Virus record (IMG/VR): IMGVR_UViG_3300027566_000003
Reading direction: 5' to 3' (one strand)
Length of the DNA stretch: 64,000 bases
Source: a virus
Taxonomy: Duplodnaviria; Caudoviricetes
Shown here: positions 53,876 to 63,155 of the stretch, one piece after another
Position numbering within the stretch: the stretch's first letter is position 1
Layout: each line of letters begins with the position of its first letter
The notes under the pieces: model-generated
Told to the model about the DNA's origin: nothing
Database searches by the model: none
What the model saw: the letters and a program-made list of their open reading frames with translations, nothing else
Translations under genes and position numbers: made by a program

Positions 53876-54859
53876 TTACTTTGGGGTTAGACTACTTTTG
53901 TAACTGTCATACATTTCCTTTAAAGAGTTGCCATTTCTTTCATCCAATTCTAAATTCCTGTATAGTTGTTTAAAGTGATCCGGCTTCAATTCCCCTAATT
54001 CTTTCTCCATTGATAAGCATTTATCTAATAAACCACTTTTAAATATAAGAGTTGGTGTTAAGAACTTTACATTTAAATAACTTCTAAAATTTCTAAATCT
54101 TGAACTAATATTTCCTGGAGTCATTCTATCATCATCGCTAAAGAATACGTCCATAGACCTAATAATAAAGGGGGTATCCTTTAGTGGTAAAATAGAAAAT
54201 GTGTCTGTTGCATCACCATTTGATTTATGATAATATTCTTCCTTAGATGCTGCTATTAGGATATCCATAGTTCTTTGATCCACTTGAACTTTTCTTGGTG
54301 AAGGATTTTTAATTAAGTCATCGGGGTCTTTAATAACATTCACTATATTAAATTCTGGAATAAGATCAGTCTTTTTGAGATTTCTTATTTCTTCATAGGA
54401 AAATCCCTCTTTAGTTCTGCCTCTTATTCCTTCGTATAGTAATGCTATTAATGCTTTGTCAACGTAGTTGTGGAGTCTGTTGCAGTAGTCATACATTTGA
54501 TCTCTTGAAATAAATGAATTTTTTTGAGCAACTTTATGGATGTATTTTTTTAAGTCTTCCTTGTTGACTAGTTTCAAAACATTCATTGAAGAATAGTGTT
54601 TATCCAAACAGCACCAGTCTAAATATTGCATAATAATTGCATAAGCTACACCCATTGATCTAAGAGATTTCTTTTTCATTCCAATTAATAAGTCTTTAAT
54701 TTCTTCGTAACTAAAACTACACAAATCTTTATCTAGTTCATACTCAAATCTTCCTACGCTTCTTAAAATAGAAGTGTTTGTTGATCTGGTTGATTCATTT
54801 GGATATTTCTCATTTAAGAAGCAATTTTTACGATCTTCATTAAATAATTTATGATCCAT
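53876..54859 (-). CDS. Integrase-fold repressor, SPbeta YopR/MrpR/SroF-like (327 aa; true ATG at 54859)
   Basis: FNEDRKNCFL...DKDLCSFS...QYLDWC (SAM-like N-terminus), ALIALLYEGI, KFLTPTLIFKSG (recalled YopR: FLTPNTIVRSG); HxxR box degenerate; coupled to the upstream gene. Confidence 0.75.
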   Translation of the reverse strand: MDHKLFNEDRKNCFLNEKYPNESTRSTNTSILRSVGRFEYELDKDLCSFSYEEIKDLLIGMKKKSLRSMGVAYAIIMQYLDWCCLDKHYSSMNVLKLVNKEDLKKYIHKVAQKNSFISRDQMYDYCNRLHNYVDKALIALLYEGIRGRTKEGFSYEEIRNLKKTDLIPEFNIVNVIKDPDDLIKNPSPRKVQVDQRTMDILIAASKEEYYHKSNGDATDTFSILPLKDTPFIIRSMDVFFSDDDRMTPGNISSRFRNFRSYLNVKFLTPTLIFKSGLLDKCLSMEKELGELKPDHFKQLYRNLELDERNGNSLKEMYDSYKSSLTPK

Positions 54860-54860
54860 T

Positions 54861-56210
54861 TTATTGAACCTCCCATTGAGCAACAATAGATTTAAAATAG
54901 TCAGATATTTTATCCATTGTTTTTTTGTTGACATTGTTTTCAATACCAATTTTCTTCCAAATATCGTTTGTTTTGCTAAAGTCTAAAGTTTTTAATATTT
55001 TAGTCAATTGATTTTTCCAATCATCACCATATTTTTGTTTAACTAATTCACCTAAAACAACATATCCAATAAACATATTGTTTGATGAAACATATGAATT
55101 CTCTCTCGCTTCAGTTAATTTACTGTTAAAAGATTCATAATTTACACCAATACAAATATTAAAAAGTTTTATTAAAAACTCTTCTACATTTTCTGACTCT
55201 GTAATAGGTAAATTTTTTAAATCATATACATAATCAATCGTTTTTGACAAAGTGTCAAACGTAACTAGTTTATTTTCAACTTTTAGCTCTTGTTCATTTA
55301 ATCCAATGCGGTTAAACATTTCATTTTTCTTTTGCTTTTCATTAATTGATCTTGCAGTTAACATATTAATATTGCTAGAACTTTTATACTGGATGGATTC
55401 CGGTGGGATGGGTGCTGCCAAACTTTCTTGTTCAATTATTTCATTCGCTCTTTCTTCTGTAACATGATGAATATAAATACTAGTTACCCTCTGAATGTCC
55501 TTACTTTTTTCAATGCATTTTAGCATTCCCCCTGTCCGATTTGCTCCGTCAATTATGTCCACTGACGTAGATATACCATCAGGTTCAATTAATAAGGTTC
55601 TTGCTTTACTATCATATTTAAATTTCTGAATGCCTTTTATCTTGCGTATATTCCATGTTATGGCATTGGGGCAAAACGTATTATTTAACATAGAGTTGGC
55701 GATTTCAGCAACTTTATCTGGGTCAATATCAATGGATTCAATTATTTTGTTTCCACTTTTCCTTTTCTGGAGTGGTCTTTGGGTGTTTGGGTTATATGTT
55801 AATAATCCATTTCCCATATACAAACCAATATTTTGATAAGTTTCTTTTGTACACAACCATTGAGACTCGCTGATTTGGTCAACATTGTGTAACATAATAT
55901 ATTTTACTTTTTCTTCTTCGGTTTTTTGATATGAATCTGCATATGATAATTCAATATCAGTAAACCACTCATTTGGCTTGATTTTTAATTCATGTGTAAA
56001 TTCATAAAGATGTTTTACAAATAAACATAATTCATTTTCTGTGAGATATACTAATGGAGTTACTTTGGTAAATATACCAGTAGTTCTACCTCGACTAATT
56101 CCTTTTTCAATCAACTTAGAAATAACCTTTTCTTGAATCTTAGTATCAACTGAATATTCTTCGACGATTAAATCTAAAACATCTTCAAGTTTTTGACGGT
56201 CTTGCTTCAT
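54861..56210 (-). CDS. DndB/DGQHR-like protein, SPbeta YopQ/SroE-like repressor
   Basis: LLTYNPNTQR, DIIDGANR, LDFSKTNDIWKKIG, versus recalled YopQ LLHYNPNAQR, DVLDGYHR, IDFSKKNKLWDELG; directly upstream of the sroF-like gene. Confidence 0.75.
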   Translation of the reverse strand: MKQDRQKLEDVLDLIVEEYSVDTKIQEKVISKLIEKGISRGRTTGIFTKVTPLVYLTENELCLFVKHLYEFTHELKIKPNEWFTDIELSYADSYQKTEEEKVKYIMLHNVDQISESQWLCTKETYQNIGLYMGNGLLTYNPNTQRPLQKRKSGNKIIESIDIDPDKVAEIANSMLNNTFCPNAITWNIRKIKGIQKFKYDSKARTLLIEPDGISTSVDIIDGANRTGGMLKCIEKSKDIQRVTSIYIHHVTEERANEIIEQESLAAPIPPESIQYKSSSNINMLTARSINEKQKKNEMFNRIGLNEQELKVENKLVTFDTLSKTIDYVYDLKNLPITESENVEEFLIKLFNICIGVNYESFNSKLTEARENSYVSSNNMFIGYVVLGELVKQKYGDDWKNQLTKILKTLDFSKTNDIWKKIGIENNVNKKTMDKISDYFKSIVAQWEVQ

Positions 56211-56239
56211 GTTTATTCCTCCTTGGATATTAATTTAAT

Positions 56240-56290
56240 TGATACATGTAATTTGTATCAATATGTATCAATATGTATCAATATGTATCA
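56240..56290. repeat. Four tandem 10-bp repeats (AT[A/T]TGTATCA) plus one inverted TGATACA, in the sroE-like 5' leader
   Basis: 56251-60 ATTTGTATCA; 56261-70, 56271-80, 56281-90 ATATGTATCA; TGATACA at 56240-46. Confidence 0.9.
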
Positions 56291-56297
56291 TAATTAT

Positions 56298-56326: not shown

Positions 56327-56427
56327 GATATAATTCACTTAAAGATATATGTTATTTGATTATGTTTGGTCTTGTTTTGTTGTGTTGTTATTGGTTGGAT
56401 GGATTTTGGTTTAAGGGTATCGTTGTC

Positions 56428-57135
56428 TTAAGGTTTTTGTTTTGAGTCTAGTAAGGGATAGATATAATTATAACCTATATTAGAAATACTTAGCAACTCT
56501 AAAAGTAAACCGAAACAACTTGATATGACAATTATTTTTATATTAAAGAGCAAGAAGATGGTCATTAATACGGCCCATATGGATAAATAATATAATGACC
56601 ATCGTTTAAATTTATGACGTTCTAATTGTTCTGCAATTGGTTTATTTGGCGTGTCTCTTGGAATATAGCGATAAACTATATATAATGTCATAACAACACA
56701 AAAAATAAATAAATACCAAATTCCTAAAAATGGCCAATATTGGAGAGTGTATTTTACTATTAGCGATGTTGTAATGAATTGAATTAAAGATATTACTGTA
56801 CATTTATTATATGTTTTAAAATGATATCCACCTGCCATTGGTCTTAAAGACATAAAAGTTAAGACTACTACAATGGCAGGTGAAAAGACTCCCAAGATTA
56901 ATGACAACAATACTAATAATAAACCTTTAAATACCGCACCAACAGGAAACATGAATGCTAGACTATATACGCTTATAAGTTCTTCAGTGGTTTTTATTTT
57001 TTTAATATTAAACTTATGAGAGAGTTGTGGAAATACCCCTGCGATCCATCCCCAAGCATATTCAATTTGATCTAATGGTACTTTCTTTACCATTTTATGA
57101 GCTAAATTATTTGATATAATTTGAATTAGATTCAT
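56428..57135 (-). CDS. agrB: AgrB-like autoinducing-peptide processing membrane protease
   Basis: LRPMAGGYHFKTYNKC (R-x-x-A-G-G-x-H...C catalytic signature), PRDTPNKPI, multiple TM segments. Confidence 0.9.
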   Translation of the reverse strand: MNLIQIISNNLAHKMVKKVPLDQIEYAWGWIAGVFPQLSHKFNIKKIKTTEELISVYSLAFMFPVGAVFKGLLLVLLSLILGVFSPAIVVVLTFMSLRPMAGGYHFKTYNKCTVISLIQFITTSLIVKYTLQYWPFLGIWYLFIFCVVMTLYIVYRYIPRDTPNKPIAEQLERHKFKRWSLYYLSIWAVLMTIFLLFNIKIIVISSCFGLLLELLSISNIGYNYIYPLLDSKQKP

Positions 57136-57151
57136 TTAAACTCCTTTCAAT

Positions 57152-57955
57152 TTAGGCAAATGCTACTTGCCTCCCTGTATTATAGTTATTTTGATATTGA
57201 AATGTTTTTTGTGTTCTCTCTTTGTTAAAAGTTTCTAGAACTTCAATAGCAAACTTTTCAGGAACATCTAAAGGAATATATCCGTCTGCCTTACCAAGTC
57301 CAACGGCAACTTTCATCATTAATTCTTTCGAACATTCTGCTACTTTTTCTACTACTCCTGATCCTGAAATTAATCTTCTTTTACTGATTGTGTCTTCTAA
57401 TTCACAACAAATGATAGAATCACATCTTAAACCATGCTCCTTTCCTATAAAAACATGAGTCGGTAATGGCGGTTTACTGCCTACACGACTAGTTATTGCT
57501 AAAACCTTTGTGTTACTACTGAATAAATTACCTTTTGGATTTTGCACCACGAGCACAGGTCGATGTCCTATCACCTCTGAATCAATCCCACTGTCAGAAA
57601 AATTACAAAAATATATTCCTCCACGTTCTATTTTTATATTTCTAATTTTTTCTAAATCATTATTTGTATAATTAGAATATCCACAAGCCAAAGTCAAATC
57701 CTTAAACGAAACTCGCCCTTGAGAATTATCAGAAATTACCTTTAGAAATGTTATATCTGGGTATGTAGACATTTTAGTCTTAATTACACCCTCCATATAA
57801 TCCCCGCTAACCTTACAATCTGCTGCAAAATTATCAATTGATCTATTACCTTTTGCAAGTATAACGTAATTTGCAAGTTTCTTAAAATCTTTTTTAGCAT
57901 TTTCCTCAGTATTAGATTTCCTAGTAATTAATTTGTTAAACATATCAATACACAT
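57152..57955 (-). CDS. Fusion of an N-terminal XRE-like HTH and a C-terminal PemK/MazF endoribonuclease
   Basis: KGNRSIDNFAADCKVS...YPDITFLKVISDNSQGRVSFKDLTLACGY; then ERGGIYF...GHRPVLVVQN...LAITS...LPTHV...DSIICCE. Confidence 0.8.
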   Translation of the reverse strand: MCIDMFNKLITRKSNTEENAKKDFKKLANYVILAKGNRSIDNFAADCKVSGDYMEGVIKTKMSTYPDITFLKVISDNSQGRVSFKDLTLACGYSNYTNNDLEKIRNIKIERGGIYFCNFSDSGIDSEVIGHRPVLVVQNPKGNLFSSNTKVLAITSRVGSKPPLPTHVFIGKEHGLRCDSIICCELEDTISKRRLISGSGVVEKVAECSKELMMKVAVGLGKADGYIPLDVPEKFAIEVLETFNKERTQKTFQYQNNYNTGRQVAFA

Positions 57956-58004: not shown

Positions 58005-58034
58005 ATTATATCTTACAATGGATATGTATGTCAA
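58005..58034 (-). promoter_or_regulatory. Promoter for the HTH-mazF and agrB unit
   Basis: TTGACA-18 bp-TATAAT. Confidence 0.65.
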
Positions 58035-58072: not shown

Positions 58073-58100
58073 TATAGGGAAGACCGTAGCCTTCCCTATA
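58073..58100. terminator. Stem-loop just after agrD
   Basis: TATAGGGAAG-8 nt-CTTCCCTATA; no U-tract on the minus strand. Confidence 0.45.
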
Positions 58101-58112
58101 TGTAATATGAAC

Positions 58113-58232
58113 TTATTCGAAACATTTAAGGGTTTCTGGTTGATAACTCCACATTGCGGAAGCTAAACATAAGGAACATACTGTAGCAATTGTGATAAGA
58201 CATCCTGCAATAATAGTATATTTGTTTTTCAT
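58113..58232 (-). CDS. agrD: AgrD-like cyclic autoinducer peptide precursor (39 aa); not in ORF track
   Basis: AAGGAGG RBS; TAATG overlap with the upstream gene; MKNKYTIIAGCLITIATVCSLCLASAMWSYQPETLKCFE*, with a hydrophobic leader and a clostridial-type xxWxY-QP-E..K tail. Confidence 0.8.
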   Translation of the reverse strand: MKNKYTIIAGCLITIATVCSLCLASAMWSYQPETLKCFE

Positions 58233-59062
58233 TAGAATTCACCTCCTTTTTCATTAATTTTTACATCATCCATTACTATATCCTGCGTAGCAAGATTTTC
58301 GTATGTCTGGTGTATTCTTTTTTCAACTTTTAGGATATAATTAACTATTAATAATATAAATGTTATAGTAATCGTCGGGATAATAAACATCATAACTACT
58401 ATAATTAATTGTTCAAAAAACGATAAATTTATTAAAATTAAATCTATTCCTATTAGTTTAATTAAGTAAATCATTGTAATCATTATACCTATCAATAAAC
58501 TAAACATTGATCTTTTTAAGAAACTATTTTTTAGTATTATATCAAATAACTTAATTTTTACATCTTCACTTTTTTTTACTATTAAGTATGTCAATATAGA
58601 ATATTCTATTACTCTTGCTGGTAATGAACATAAAAAATTCAAAATAAAGTTGGAGTTTATGTATAAGATATTTGTTTTTGTGAGAGATAATATTAACGGG
58701 TAGTAGCATTCTAATATTGAAATAATGAAAATTCCTAATATTGTATAAAACAATGCTTTAAAGTATTTAATCTTCTCTTGAAGTAAATTATTATTTTTTA
58801 TAACAACTAATGTTAATAAATATAATACTAGTATACCAGTTATTTGGGCAATAGATTTTGAAATATTTGTTAATCTTGCAAAACTTATTATAAAAGACAT
58901 TCCAATTGCTGGTAAAGCGACCCATTTTATATTATCTTTCCACATTCTGATATCTAATAAATCATCTCTACTTATACCTATTAATACTATTGCTACAACG
59001 AACAATTCTTCTGGTAAACTTACTAAAAACATGTTTAATAAGGCATTAATTGTACTTTGCAT
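58232..59062 (-). CDS. Polytopic membrane protein resembling an AgrC/VirS sensor domain, without kinase domains
   Basis: 276 aa, about 7 hydrophobic segments, short cytoplasmic tail; no H-box or HATPase motifs; translationally coupled to agrD. Confidence 0.6.
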   Translation of the reverse strand: MQSTINALLNMFLVSLPEELFVVAIVLIGISRDDLLDIRMWKDNIKWVALPAIGMSFIISFARLTNISKSIAQITGILVLYLLTLVVIKNNNLLQEKIKYFKALFYTILGIFIISILECYYPLILSLTKTNILYINSNFILNFLCSLPARVIEYSILTYLIVKKSEDVKIKLFDIILKNSFLKRSMFSLLIGIMITMIYLIKLIGIDLILINLSFFEQLIIVVMMFIIPTITITFILLIVNYILKVEKRIHQTYENLATQDIVMDDVKINEKGGEF

Positions 59063-59153: not shown

Positions 59154-59717
59154 TTATATTTTGTTTATTATATGTATTTGGTTGGACGCTTTTATGGAAT
59201 TGTAAGTAATTATAAATACAAACGATCTGAATATTAAATCCCCTGGCGACATACAACACCATCCGAAATCCCACACATCACAAAGCGGTATCATTTTTGT
59301 AAATTCATCTCCCATTATATGATAGTCTCCATACGGTAATGCTTTAACAAACATATCATGTTTTGCATATCCAGTTGCCCATGAGTTAGAAAAAAATACT
59401 GGCATTTTCCCTGAATTAGCTCTTATTGCAATTGTATTAAGTATACTACCTATCCAAACAAGAGGAATAAAACAAAAATATAACTTCATTTTATTATAAG
59501 ATATCGCCAATAATAAGAAACAACTTAAATAAACAGTTTTAAATAAATATGTATATTTAACTAAAGAATAATCACCTTGCCAAATTGTCGATTCAAGATA
59601 AATGTATAGAAGCACCATAAACATAACAGGGTAAATACTCCATTTTTTAAAAATAGGAAGTATTTTATAGTTATTCCATTTGGCAACTAAAAAAGATAAG
59701 AAAACAGTTTCAATCAT
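59154..59717 (-). CDS. DUF5317-like membrane protein
   Basis: GSILNTIAIRANSGKMPV and LCDVWD...SPGD signature; multi-TM. Confidence 0.65.
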   Translation of the reverse strand: MIETVFLSFLVAKWNNYKILPIFKKWSIYPVMFMVLLYIYLESTIWQGDYSLVKYTYLFKTVYLSCFLLLAISYNKMKLYFCFIPLVWIGSILNTIAIRANSGKMPVFFSNSWATGYAKHDMFVKALPYGDYHIMGDEFTKMIPLCDVWDFGWCCMSPGDLIFRSFVFIITYNSIKASNQIHIINKI

Positions 59718-59764: not shown

Positions 59765-61381
59765 TTACGGAGGTTCATCATCTTTTTTAATCATATTCTC
59801 ATAGTCTACCAAATACATCCATCTATAACCTTTTGCAAACTCACGAACTTTATTAGTATCTGATCTTATCCTCTTGGTCAAACAACTACTAATTGCAGAG
59901 TTATTCGCAAGACCTAAATCTTTTGTTGCATCTCTCACAGAATTATATTGTTTAACAAATTTATAATCCTTAGATAAACAAATAATTTTTATAGTTCCTG
60001 TTTGATGATAATCATCTGGTTTAATTAAGATATTGTTCCAAATTGAATAACTTATAGCACCTTTAGTTGCTCCTACATATTCAGCAACTTCATCAAAATT
60101 ATAACCATTATCTAATAATCTTTGTGCTTCTTCTACGTCCCAATCTCTTCTTGTATTTTTACTATCATCAATATATTCTGGCATTTCTTTAATATATGGG
60201 AAAAACATCTGTATTGCTTCCAAAGGAGAATAATCTCTGTGGTCTAAATCTATGTAATTATATTTATTATCTATTGCAAATTGCTTTTTAAGTTTATCTC
60301 GCGCCATATGTATTTCATCATCATGATATTCGCTTTGACATTCTATTAATAGATTTAATCTTGGAACATAAATATCATATTTGCTTACACCATTTTTATC
60401 TGTTCTAAATCCTATATCATATTCCCATTTTGTATCATGATCTTCATGCTTAAATACTTGTTTAAGCGTTGTTGCCATTCTAGACTCTACTTTTTCTCTT
60501 ACACATTCAGGACATCCAAAATTACAATTTTTTGCACTATATATTATTTGTGGATAATCTTCATGTTTACACTCTTTACATTTCCACCAAACTTTTGTAC
60601 TGCTTCCTGGGGTATATTCATATGGAGATTTATTATTTTTATCAGACCAAATTTCTATTGTTTGAGGATATAAATATCCTAAACTATCATATTTATGTAC
60701 TTTTACACGCGAATTACAATACCCACACCTCCCTCCACTAATAAATTCTCCGCAAAGAATATCATAACTCCCATGGTAATCTTTTTCTTGGCATTTAATC
60801 CAAACTTTTCTATTAGTATATTTAGTGTATTTAAAAGGGTCAATTGTATTTTTATCATAGTCCCAATATAATTCTAACGCAGTAACACCAAACGAATCTA
60901 TTAAAAATTGTCCAAAACTATCTTTAGGATGTACAGAATTTTGTCCTTTACAATAACTACATCTATTACCTCTTATAAAATCCGAACCACTAATTTGATA
61001 ACTTCCATGATAGTTTTTCTTTCTACAAAAGATATAAAATTTTTTGTAATTATTATAATTAATTTTCCAAGGATCAATGCCTAATTCATTATTCTTCTCA
61101 TAATCCCAATATTCTTTAAGAAAATCTTCTCCTAAATTATCTATCCCCCATTCTGCGAATGTATAACACAATCCACAACTACTTTTAGATTTTCTATTTA
61201 TAATACCAGAAGGACTGACTAACCAATCCTTGCCGCACGTACAAGTATGTAGTATTTTAGTATTAGCACCAATATATTCAACTCCTTCTTTTAACTTTAT
61301 ATTTGTATCATATTTTAAATTATATTCTTCTAATTCTTGTTTATATTGTTCTGTTGTCTTCTTATTAGTTTTCTTAGTCAA
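59765..61381 (-). CDS. Putative homing endonuclease: Zn-ribbon repeats, PD-(D/E)xK-like domain and NUMOD1-like tail
   Basis: Three WDYEKN...K(V)W.(C)...H.SY...R.C.YC units; YDIYVPRLNLLIECQSEYH; KQYNSVRDATKDLG...AISSCL...KGYRWMY. Confidence 0.65.
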   Translation of the reverse strand: MTKKTNKKTTEQYKQELEEYNLKYDTNIKLKEGVEYIGANTKILHTCTCGKDWLVSPSGIINRKSKSSCGLCYTFAEWGIDNLGEDFLKEYWDYEKNNELGIDPWKINYNNYKKFYIFCRKKNYHGSYQISGSDFIRGNRCSYCKGQNSVHPKDSFGQFLIDSFGVTALELYWDYDKNTIDPFKYTKYTNRKVWIKCQEKDYHGSYDILCGEFISGGRCGYCNSRVKVHKYDSLGYLYPQTIEIWSDKNNKSPYEYTPGSSTKVWWKCKECKHEDYPQIIYSAKNCNFGCPECVREKVESRMATTLKQVFKHEDHDTKWEYDIGFRTDKNGVSKYDIYVPRLNLLIECQSEYHDDEIHMARDKLKKQFAIDNKYNYIDLDHRDYSPLEAIQMFFPYIKEMPEYIDDSKNTRRDWDVEEAQRLLDNGYNFDEVAEYVGATKGAISYSIWNNILIKPDDYHQTGTIKIICLSKDYKFVKQYNSVRDATKDLGLANNSAISSCLTKRIRSDTNKVREFAKGYRWMYLVDYENMIKKDDEPP

Positions 61382-61412: not shown

Positions 61413-61832
61413 TTATGCATAAACTACACCATTTTTATTTCTTAATTCTACCAATCCAAACTGTATACCGATTCCTCTATCAATTCTTAACATAGTTTCC
61501 TCATCGCATTGTCCTATTTTTTCTTCAATCAAATCTCTCGTGACTGGCATGGACTGTTCGCAGAGAGCAATAGAATCCATTTTTAGGCCAGAATTTCTAC
61601 TGATGGGTATATGAGTAGGTAATTTTGATTTTGTGGTCACAGAAGTTAAAGGACATATATGTAGTACATTGGAATATTGATTACAGGCGTTGTTGCTAAT
61701 TATCACTACGGGACGCTTAAATTGTTGGATAGATCCATTACTGTTGGGAAGATTTGCAATATAGATATCGCCCCTCTTAATCTCTTTTTGAGCTTGAACA
61801 TTATTTATTGTTTGTTTCATAATACTAATCAC
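61413..61832 (-). CDS. mazF: Orphan PemK/MazF endoribonuclease
   Basis: KRGDIYIANL...KRPVVIISN...PLTS...LPTHI...DSIALCEQ; no antitoxin-like neighbour. Confidence 0.85.
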   Translation of the reverse strand: MISIMKQTINNVQAQKEIKRGDIYIANLPNSNGSIQQFKRPVVIISNNACNQYSNVLHICPLTSVTTKSKLPTHIPISRNSGLKMDSIALCEQSMPVTRDLIEEKIGQCDEETMLRIDRGIGIQFGLVELRNKNGVVYA

Positions 61833-61864: not shown

Positions 61865-62630
61865 CCAATAATTTGTCCAATATACCTATTATTTTATAAA
61901 AATTTTATTTATATTGTATAACTATTACTTGCAATCAAAATTACATTCTAATTATTACCACCATAAACTATCCAAACACAAAGCAAACAAACTAACTACA
62001 TCATCAGCTTTCTCTTTTTGCGCATCTGTCATTTTGTATTCATCGATAGTTAAATAAATCTTTAAACCATCTAACATCCTATCAATACATTCTTGAAATG
62101 TAATTGTTTTCCCTTTGAACTCGTATTTATGAAAAGACGTATCAATACTATTTACTTCATTATACATAGATAATCTTTCATATAACCATAATTTAAATGT
62201 AAAATCCATCGACCAAGTTTCCTTTTCATCAAAACCATATATTTCTCTTTCTTTCGACCATTTCTCCTGTCTAGGATCATCTTTATTCCAACCTTGATGA
62301 GTATTATCCTCTTTTATACCGATGTCTTTAAGATATTTGCCTAACATTTAATTATCATCCTTAAATATTAAATCCTTTAAAAAACTTGTTTGCTAGGATT
62401 GTTTAAATAATTTACAATAATCTTCCCATACATTCATTGCAAGTATTTTCTATATATTTAACAATTTCACTATATGTCTCAAAACTTATTTTCTTGTTCT
62501 TCTCACAATTCTTACACTTATTAAGCGATCCTAATATAAAATTTACCTGTAATAATACACGTAATTTTATATATTCCCATTCTATCTTCAGTATTTTTAT
62601 ATGGCATGTTTCTCCTTTACTATTTATATT

Positions 62631-63155
62631 TTATAGTAATTGTAATCTCTTCACATACTTTTTCGCATCTTGTTTAAGCATAGGTGGCAATCCTACCACC
62701 GTAAGACTTCCATAAGGAATTTCGGTTAACCCATTATCCCTTATGTAATAAAACCCTGCGTCAATTAACTTCTCCAAATCCTTTTGTTTACCACGCAAAA
62801 TTATTTTCTTTTGATCTAATTCATACCATTGCCAAAATAATCCCCATCGTTTAAAACTATTTTCTACTGCAATTATTGTTGCAACATGAGCTACTTGGGC
62901 AGCAACCTTCCCTGGGCTTAGGTTTAATTCTGAATTCACGATAAAATATTCTACAATTTCAAATTCCTCTGGTTTAATAAAACTCATATTAAATTCCTCT
63001 TTACAATTAGGACAATTAAAATAACTACCACTAGAATTTTGTTCGATAGGTATGATGTCTACAATATCATATTTTTTAAATTGTTTTTTAGTTTCTCTAT
63101 TCCATTCTTCAGATGTTGATAACGCTCCGCAATTTGGGCATATGTATTTTTTCAT
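62631..63155 (-). CDS. Zn-ribbon::Pth2 peptidyl-tRNA hydrolase fusion (copy 2)
   Basis: CPNCG...CPNCK N-terminus, then NSELNLSPGKVAAQVAH...; 60-bp block identical to copy 1. Confidence 0.85.
   Translation of the reverse strand: MKKYICPNCGALSTSEEWNRETKKQFKKYDIVDIIPIEQNSSGSYFNCPNCKEEFNMSFIKPEEFEIVEYFIVNSELNLSPGKVAAQVAHVATIIAVENSFKRWGLFWQWYELDQKKIILRGKQKDLEKLIDAGFYYIRDNGLTEIPYGSLTVVGLPPMLKQDAKKYVKRLQLL

Follow-up and report, generated by a model that had tools for sequence, protein, structure and literature searches.

A conserved phage protein that joins a predicted XRE-type helix-turn-helix to a MazF domain, encoded in an agr-type cassette beside an SPbeta-like repressor module

MazF toxins are normally small, free proteins that are checked by a separate antitoxin, and in EzeT and CapRel(SJ46) toxin and antitoxin are fused in a single chain. 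Among phages related to the one described here, c-st persists as a plasmid-like prophage. The master repressor of SPbeta is MrpR/YopR (PMC10516654), lysogenisation by phi3T requires host MazF activity and the arbitrium output AimX inhibits MazF, according to two reports (PMC10769878; bioRxiv 10.1101/2023.04.27.537455), and the C. difficile phage phiCDHM1 carries agr genes (PMC3901668). Here we analyse 64,000 nucleotides (the window, by which we mean this whole stretch) of the 94-kb IMG/VR virus record IMGVR_UViG_3300027566_000003, which has a completeness estimate of 56%. One gene of the window, here called HTH-mazF, encodes a predicted helix-turn-helix (HTH) domain and a MazF domain in a single protein, and lies between genes for an AgrD-like propeptide and AgrB.

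Our preferred reading, to which we assign a probability of roughly 0.45, is that HTH-MazF is a phage-encoded MazF RNase, tethered to an HTH, that acts inside the cell for an agr-type cassette whose output feeds into the lysis-lysogeny decision. The cassette combines known kinds of component (MazF toxins, phage agr genes and SPbeta-type lysogeny modules), with a credible chance that together they form a new phage communication circuit. The fusion is conserved and complete genomes contain no matching antitoxin gene, which raises the question of how the nuclease is restrained and released; the fixed place between a signalling-peptide gene and an SPbeta-like master-repressor module provides a biological setting for that question. 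If HTH-MazF has this role, phages would have turned more than once to peptide signalling together with MazF for choosing between lysis and lysogeny, and this would be an agr circuit that signals with no kinase. At ~4 kb, the cassette is small enough to be rebuilt in a laboratory host.

The HTH-MazF protein has four parts, an XRE/Cro-type HTH, a linker, a MazF/PemK domain and a C-terminal tail, listed below with residue numbers that follow the 267-residue listing and not the probable 263-amino-acid product.

57152..57955, minus strand: HTH-MazF open reading frame, 267 amino acids as listed; probable true start at ATG 57943, giving 263 amino acids
57671..57898, minus strand: XRE/Cro-type HTH domain, residues 20-95, from its predicted fold
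57632..57685, minus strand: linker CGYSNYxNNDxEQIxNI, residues 91-108, with invariant or near-invariant columns
57275..57631, minus strand: MazF/PemK domain, residues 109-227, with R132 and T155, from Pfam, Foldseek and alignment
57155..57274, minus strand: C-terminal extension, residues 228-267, conserved, with an amphipathic helix E..AI..L..LN and a tail ...RQVAFA

Translation almost certainly starts at the ATG at 57943 (MFNKL...), because this is where all relatives begin and it is preceded, at a distance of 7 nt, by a long Shine-Dalgarno sequence (AAAGGATGTG). The MazF domain matches the Pfam model PemK_toxin (PF02452) over residues 110-220 with 66 bits (cut-off 23.1; E 4e-18). When compared by Foldseek, its AlphaFold2 model falls on Bacillus and Staphylococcus MazF, with a TMt of 0.91, a root-mean-square deviation (rmsd) of 1.9 Å and 36% identity to 4hke; the SH3-like barrel is shared with 4hke, 7bxy and 4mdx (E 2e-11 to 8e-11, rmsd 1.8-2.0 Å) and with 1ne8, also at a TMt of ~0.9. 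Residues R132-P133 and T155-S156 align with 'VRPV' and 'AIT' of Bacillus MazF, at the positions of catalytic R25 and T48 in B. subtilis MazF. In an alignment of 30 sequences R132 is invariant and T155 nearly so, and the PTHV motif is invariant across the family. The domain therefore keeps the catalytic Arg and Thr, and from its sequence is predicted to be an endoribonuclease.

The N-terminal domain holds up in modelling as an XRE/Cro-CI HTH with a five-helix fold. Folded alone by AlphaFold2 with 26 homologues, residues 20-95 are predicted with a local confidence score (pLDDT) >90, and all of the top 20 structural matches are XRE HTH proteins, including 2ofy (Z 9.7), C.AhdI (8.6) and CapH (8.4). 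Foldseek places the domain on that of SinR (N-domain TMt 0.81, rmsd 1.5 Å), and other fold neighbours include ImmR, the P22 c2 and 434 repressors, HigA, HipB, PrgX and ComR. The sequence fits the XRE pattern hxxhAxxxxhSxxYhxxh...YP, weakly matches the PHROG 'transcriptional regulator' family phrog_18248 (E 1.8e-4) and has language-model neighbours at 0.83-0.85; no Pfam or NCBIfam HTH model (HTH_3, HTH_19, HTH_31 and related ones) matches at E <=0.1.

The linker is a candidate in-cis inhibitory or processing segment. Its residues 95-98 have a pLDDT <50, and model confidence is also low around residue 100. The ...RQVAFA tail resembles an ssrA-like degron, a lead that may or may not prove apt given that it draws on resemblance; a likeness of the C-terminal extension to the C-terminal helix of MazE was considered and dropped, the extension's profile having found no MazE match. 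The original prediction, made from the letters alone, had joined an HTH to a PemK domain in this open reading frame and noted that the RP and TS residues at catalytic positions are kept, and the Pfam match, the predicted XRE fold and the alignment confirm it on both counts. Its wording 'CI-like clostridial' for the XRE domain is more specific than the evidence, and it mentioned neither the conserved 40-residue C-terminal extension nor the repressor genes nearby.

Full-length relatives of HTH-MazF number 52, at 48-94% identity and from several metagenome sources, some of them on contigs of 120-230 kb, and a HMMER search of 1.8 billion representatives adds ~20 further full-length clusters at 30-36% identity. 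Pairwise ratios of nonsynonymous to synonymous substitution (dN/dS) are 0.07-0.25 across the HTH, linker and MazF regions (with 0.05-0.23 given for the linker by itself) and 0.12-0.47 for the C-terminal tail, and all four parts are under purifying selection. That the fusion arose from a sequencing error, which the original prediction had named as its own possible undoing, or from misassembly, or that the gene is a decaying pseudogene, is refuted and retains next to no probability: the 52 full-length relatives come from many independent contigs, several samples and several databases, every region is under purifying selection and there are no internal stops.

Scanning 185,579 species genomes of bacteria and archaea turned up no relative of the family, a megablast search of phage and plasmid collections with the cassette gave no match, and neither did a tblastn search of phages with AgrB. 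Among public sequencing runs, those that came up were DNA from groundwater and sediment, with none from RNA. Public records label family members as 'PemK/MazF family toxin' and nothing more. We found no paper on an HTH-MazF fusion or on a cassette of DUF5317, membrane protein, agrD, HTH-mazF and agrB, in line with the earlier remark that this architecture was not known to have been characterised. Matches with two PemK domains (P0069 and others) were considered as HTH fusions and rejected, since they turned out to be tandem MazF-MazF proteins. These metagenomic tandem proteins (P0069, P0070, P0073, P0076, P0082, P0089 and others) have two, and once four, PemK domains per chain and look like natural single-chain MazF dimers.

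The genes and transcription signals surrounding HTH-mazF are as follows, in the direction of transcription.

59154..59717, minus strand: membrane protein of the DUF5317 family, whose gene leads the upstream unit, from Pfam (E 2e-15) and synteny
58232..59062, minus strand: polytopic membrane protein, 276 amino acids, kinase-less, with no Pfam domain; its stop overlaps the agrD start
58113..58232, minus strand: agrD-like propeptide, 39 amino acids, a conserved short open reading frame
58073..58100, minus strand: hairpin directly 3' of agrD, -19.3 kcal/mol, z -6.4
58005..58034, minus strand: sigma-70-type promoter of the HTH-mazF-agrB unit, TTGACA-N18-TATAAT, 12/12 match
57136..57151, minus strand: 16-bp gap between HTH-mazF and agrB with the agrB ribosome-binding site (AAAGGAG)
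56428..57135, minus strand: agrB, peptide-processing membrane protease, Pfam AgrB E 3e-33

For synteny, open reading frames were called in 21 loci and classified by BLAST against the window proteins. Gene order is the same in all 13 loci with enough flank: (MazF2), (Zn-finger endonuclease), DUF5317, 270-amino-acid membrane protein, AgrD-like, HTH-MazF, AgrB, (second membrane paralogue), (endonuclease), YopQ-like and MrpR-like, with the exceptions that DUF5317 was not found in locus L015 and that L016 ends before MrpR. An AgrD-like open reading frame with the C-terminal motif (Y/H/N)QPxxPxC lies directly upstream of HTH-mazF in 17/17 distinct loci, including three remote ones at 31-36% identity; the agrD-like frame itself has no Pfam or NCBIfam match. 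The remote homologues without agrB after them are followed by a membrane paralogue (L009), a 94-amino-acid protein (L010), or a 113-amino-acid protein and then YopQ (L011). The invariant neighbour of HTH-mazF is the peptide gene, not agrB. Because remote homologues also have the AgrD-like gene upstream, the agrD/HTH-mazF layout is ancestral to the family and not an insertion, and the original description of the fusion as 'inserted between agrD and agrB' is misleading, agrD, HTH-mazF and agrB being the conserved order of the whole phage family.

The agrD hairpin, the promoter, a leader of ~60 nt and HTH-mazF follow one another in that order. Hairpins of different sequence stand in the same place elsewhere, with perfect stems in L002, L009 and L010 and a weaker one in L011 (72% complementarity), and the element is a probable terminator or processing site. 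The promoter recurs at the equivalent position in five of the six other loci inspected (L001, L002, L003, L009 and L011), with no clear match in L010, and the gap before agrB is 12-27 bp in 14/14 close loci. That HTH-mazF has its own promoter and is transcribed together with agrB, as had been proposed with the same 16-bp gap, is well supported by this conservation, co-transcription being almost certain.

This layout invites a narrower explanation, in which HTH-MazF acts on its own unit twice, as a repressor or activator of the HTH-mazF-agrB promoter through its HTH and as a nuclease on the resulting mRNA, so that peptide maturation limits itself. Besides the shared promoter and the close spacing in all 14 loci, it has in its favour that autoregulation by HTH antitoxins is textbook behaviour for type II toxin-antitoxin (TA) operons, and a feedback loop on peptide maturation, as first suggested for this locus, is plausible. 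It is nevertheless unlikely as an alternative, given that the remote members L009-L011 keep agrD upstream and have no agrB after HTH-mazF, that no conserved operator was found, and that a second MazF gene and the constant place beside YopQ and MrpR genes are left unexplained. Such a loop is compatible with the preferred model as a sub-function.

The case for a link to lysogeny comes from the wider neighbourhood.

54861..56210, minus strand: YopQ (SroE)-like protein, 449 amino acids, phrog_5732 E 4e-62, with tblastn matches to phi3T_96 and c-st CST029
53876..54949, minus strand: MrpR/YopR (SroF)-like master repressor, 357 amino acids, start uncertain, Pfam MrpR_N_CB E 1e-17 and MrpR_C_cat E 2e-8
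61413..61832, minus strand: MazF2, a free-standing MazF of 139 amino acids ending ...GVVYA, Pfam E 1e-24, 34% identical to the fused MazF domain

The agr-MazF cassette lies directly upstream of the YopQ and MrpR homologues, and both are found downstream wherever the flanks reach. The phi3T_96 protein is annotated as similar to SPbeta YopQ, and CST029 of c-st as a YopQ homologue. In phi3T the genes aimR-aimP-aimX are just upstream of yopP-yopQ-yopR, a position equivalent to that of the agr-MazF cassette. In the botulinum-converting phage c-st a MazF gene, CST027 (annotated 'PemK family transcriptional regulator'; AP008983.1 22935-23597), precedes the yopQ-yopR homologues by two genes. Its MazF domain is N-terminal (residues 18-130) and 26% identical over that domain, with a C-terminal extension of ~90 residues and no N-terminal HTH; an antirepressor-like gene (P22_AR_N) precedes it and there are no agr genes there. 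Phage MazF is therefore tied to the repressor neighbourhood independently of agr. MazF2 is 3.5 kb upstream of HTH-mazF and conserved in relatives: a search of five, of which three are 100% complete, gave exactly two PemK genes in every one. With YopQ/MrpR directly downstream and MazF2 3.5 kb upstream, the setting favours the lysis-lysogeny decision over a loop confined to AgrB.

Across loci L001-L025 the YopQ-like protein and its MrpR-like neighbour vary in near-perfect step (r 0.99). They occur in two divergent types, with ~65% and ~23% identity to the window copies, which are shuffled independently of the agr-MazF cassette; this suggests that YopQ/MrpR pairs are exchangeable immunity modules. 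The leader of the yopQ-like gene (56234-56296, minus strand) contains four direct TGATACA repeats at 10-bp spacing and one inverted copy, which may serve as operators or as RNase targets; the array is not conserved as such in L001, L002 and L011. Once transcribed, the same leader has four copies of UACAU, the Bacillus MazF site, within 60 nt, and nowhere in the window do they cluster more densely. The cluster was not used as evidence for targeting by HTH-MazF, as the array is not conserved and the window protein differs from Bacillus MazF at the 'EQ' positions. After the agrB stop, ~100 nt (56330-56427, minus strand) are C/A-rich and almost G-free, unusual for an AT-rich phage, and resemble a Rho-utilisation tract rather than an intrinsic terminator.

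No MazE-like open reading frame lies near HTH-mazF, and the 157-bp gap upstream holds none of at least 30 amino acids. In the 94-kb record there is no match above cut-off to MazE_antitoxin (PF04014), RHH_1 (PF01402), LytTR or an AgrC-type ATPase (HATPase_c_5), and PF04014, LytTR and the AgrC-type ATPase, the models also run on three relatives of 167, 227 and 230 kb that are 100% complete, matched nothing there either. As far as canonical models reach, there is no antitoxin gene, as the original prediction had it, and no phage-encoded kinase or response regulator for the agr genes. No canonical antitoxin gene was identified beside MazF2 either; the 130-amino-acid open reading frame upstream of it (61955-62347) matches no family and is a candidate antitoxin. 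Partners may be small non-canonical inhibitors (AimX-like) or host-encoded, including a host AgrC/AgrA pair. Since no MazE-type gene was found, the toxin is probably restrained in cis or through a non-canonical partner.

Restraint in cis is also what would be expected if HTH-MazF were a self-contained single-chain TA system, with the XRE domain and linker, or the C-terminal tail, as the fused antitoxin, serving addiction, plasmid-prophage maintenance, superinfection exclusion or abortive infection, and with its proximity to agr incidental. We regard this as possible, if rather doubtful. XRE HTHs are common type II antitoxins, HigA and HipB are among the structural matches, and Xre antitoxins are paired with several toxin families (Makarova et al. 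2009); the domains follow the order of antitoxin and toxin genes (DNA-binding part first), a separate antitoxin was not detected, an invariant yet poorly ordered linker is how a tethered inhibitory peptide is expected to look, and addiction modules would be useful to a plasmid-like prophage such as that of the related phage c-st. However, an AgrD-like gene upstream in 17/17 loci, down to 31% identity, is too tight an association for an incidental neighbour, and the family is absent from the 185,579 species genomes scanned whereas ordinary TA modules spread widely. Moreover, only cleavage would let a fused antitoxin disappear ahead of its toxin, and neither a protease nor a cleavage site was identified; the profile of the C-terminal tail is also unlike MazE.

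The lack of a recognisable signal-transduction pair bears on another explanation, that HTH-MazF is mainly a transcription factor in which the MazF domain serves as a dimerisation domain or ligand sensor, binding for example an AgrD-derived peptide in the groove for the MazE tail; it would then be an intracellular receptor like AimR or Rgg, with RNA cleavage secondary or lost. The propeptide and HTH-MazF genes are invariably adjacent, as in RRNPP/arbitrium propeptide-receptor pairs, no AgrC-kinase ATPase or LytTR match was obtained in the phage genomes searched, and PrgX and ComR, which are receptors with an HTH and a peptide sensor, are among the fold matches of the N-terminal domain. Short 'EDF' peptides are reported to bind E. 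coli MazF, although this is contested in the field. Against this, the whole family keeps the catalytic Arg and Thr and the PTHV motif, which a non-catalytic scaffold would not need, and cyclic peptides made by AgrB are normally sensed outside the cell.

Rates of divergence speak to the same question. Mean identity is 58-66% for HTH-MazF (66% for the HTH, the most conserved element of the neighbourhood) versus 43% for the membrane protein, and HTH-MazF identity correlates moderately with that of DUF5317, the membrane protein and AgrB (r 0.3-0.5). Because the membrane protein is far more variable, HTH-MazF fits a conserved downstream component of the agr cassette, not a signal-specific receptor; with HTH-MazF so much more conserved than the membrane protein and weakly correlated with it, a shared downstream effector is the better fit and a peptide-sensing transcription factor is very unlikely. 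The membrane protein family is largely viral (a cluster of 637 members, 76% viral among those of known phylum) and its cytoplasmic tail, QQTYENLxxQDDVMLDVED-like, is acidic and conserved; a second paralogue follows agrB in many loci. A complex prediction for two HTH-MazF chains and the 276-amino-acid membrane protein scored 0.00 without controls, which speaks neither for nor against binding.

In the preferred model, HTH-MazF would work as a dimer, an active MazF endoribonuclease that never parts from its DNA-binding XRE domain, which is of the antitoxin type. Its own strong promoter would make it together with AgrB, such that RNase production and peptide maturation would rise together. The MazF dimer would carry two HTHs for binding to phage DNA, in the simplest case around its own promoter, and would set its own level in the manner of type II antitoxins. 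The RNase would then trim phage or host transcripts and move the infected cell towards one lysis-lysogeny outcome, a role like that of host MazF for the arbitrium phage phi3T, with the nuclease now a fixed part of the phage. The toxin would be restrained from within the protein (HTH, invariant linker or C-terminal tail) or by a non-canonical partner. RNase activity, DNA binding, autoregulation, autoinhibition and the connection to a peptide signal or lysogeny are inferred. Of the dual DNA-binding and RNase effector that the original prediction envisaged, the two-function architecture stands, with an HTH fold and an intact MazF domain under purifying selection; the DNA-binding side lacks a convincing conserved operator.

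Several observations weigh against the preferred model. The search for an operator around the promoter in the window and L001 gave AT-rich inverted repeats that are not clearly conserved or compensated. A search of PDB sequences with the profile of the N-terminal domain found nothing, and the HTH is identified by its predicted fold. The profile of the C-terminal tail, run against solved structures and Pfam, matched neither MazE nor anything else meaningful. Domain placement in the full-length AlphaFold2 model is not confident (predicted template-modelling score 0.55), so that in-cis inhibition is a conjecture. The protein reads 'EL' at the Bacillus 'EQ' positions, which makes UACAU-based arguments weak. 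HTH-MazF identity is uncorrelated with that of YopQ/MrpR (r ~0, no co-diversification) and likewise with that of MazF2, and because of the former a specific link between the HTH and an operator in the immunity module is not supported. The place of the cassette next to the repressor module may also reflect an accessory-gene hotspot rather than function.

A broader extension of the preferred model can be offered as tentative and somewhat doubtful. The cassette would be a second, non-arbitrium form of viral communication, an agr-type cyclic-peptide circuit without kinase or response regulator, whose output HTH-MazF (possibly held and released by the membrane protein) sets lysis or lysogeny upstream of YopQ/MrpR; the phage would have internalised the MazF step for which arbitrium phages rely on the host.

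The remaining genes of the record indicate its general character. Nearly all long open reading frames of the window are on the minus strand, and because the record encodes a PolIII-alpha-type DNA polymerase, ribonucleotide reductase, NAD-dependent ligase and helicase-nuclease, it derives from a large phage. On the preferred reading the phages with this cassette are large, temperate and Clostridium-type. A 538-amino-acid protein (59765-61381, minus strand) has repeated DUF4379 treble-clef zinc fingers and weak NUMOD and PvuRts1I-like endonuclease matches; in related loci its homologues stand either between agrB and yopQ or ahead of DUF5317, a variable placement reminiscent of mobile homing-endonuclease genes. 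There is also a phage-encoded peptidyl-tRNA hydrolase (62631-63155, minus strand; PTH2 E 1e-17) with an N-terminal zinc-ribbon region.

Among described proteins, MazF/EndoA (NdoA) of B. subtilis and MoxT/PemK of B. anthracis are like HTH-MazF in fold (TMt ~0.9, rmsd ~2 Å) at 36-38% identity, and share the catalytic Arg and Thr and the GxRPxxVxQN and LPTHV motifs. HTH-MazF differs from them in its 105-residue N-terminal XRE HTH and linker, its 40-residue tail, the lack of a MazE and its position on a phage amid agr genes. The XRE antitoxins and repressors (HigA, HipB, SinR, ImmR, C.AhdI, 434 and P22) share the five-helix fold predicted for the N-terminal domain, which, unlike theirs, falls below every Pfam and NCBIfam HTH threshold and is fused to a toxin instead of being a separate labile protein. 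EzeT and CapRel(SJ46) are similar in being single chains that contain a toxin domain and have no antitoxin encoded by a gene of its own, suggesting in-cis control; in HTH-MazF the toxin is of another family, the extra domain is a DNA-binding HTH and in-cis neutralisation is conjectural.

At the level of the locus, the arbitrium systems of phi3T and SPbeta resemble the HTH-MazF cassette in lying upstream of yopQ-yopR, in having a hairpin after the propeptide gene and then an effector, and in tying MazF to lysogeny. The cassette differs in that its peptide is agr-type and AgrB-processed, not linear and handled by Sec/Opp, in having no AimR (the cassette proteins matched no family of TPR or AimR type in Pfam scans), in that its effector is a MazF and not a MazF inhibitor, and in using its own promoter and not antitermination. 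CST027 of c-st is likewise a phage MazF upstream of yopQ-yopR, although its MazF domain is N-terminal, with no HTH and no agr genes nearby. Phage phiCDHM1 is like the HTH-MazF phages in bearing agrB and agrD on a clostridial phage, and also carries an AgrC histidine kinase; the HTH-MazF phages have no AgrC match, and instead encode a kinase-less membrane protein and, between agrD and agrB, HTH-MazF.

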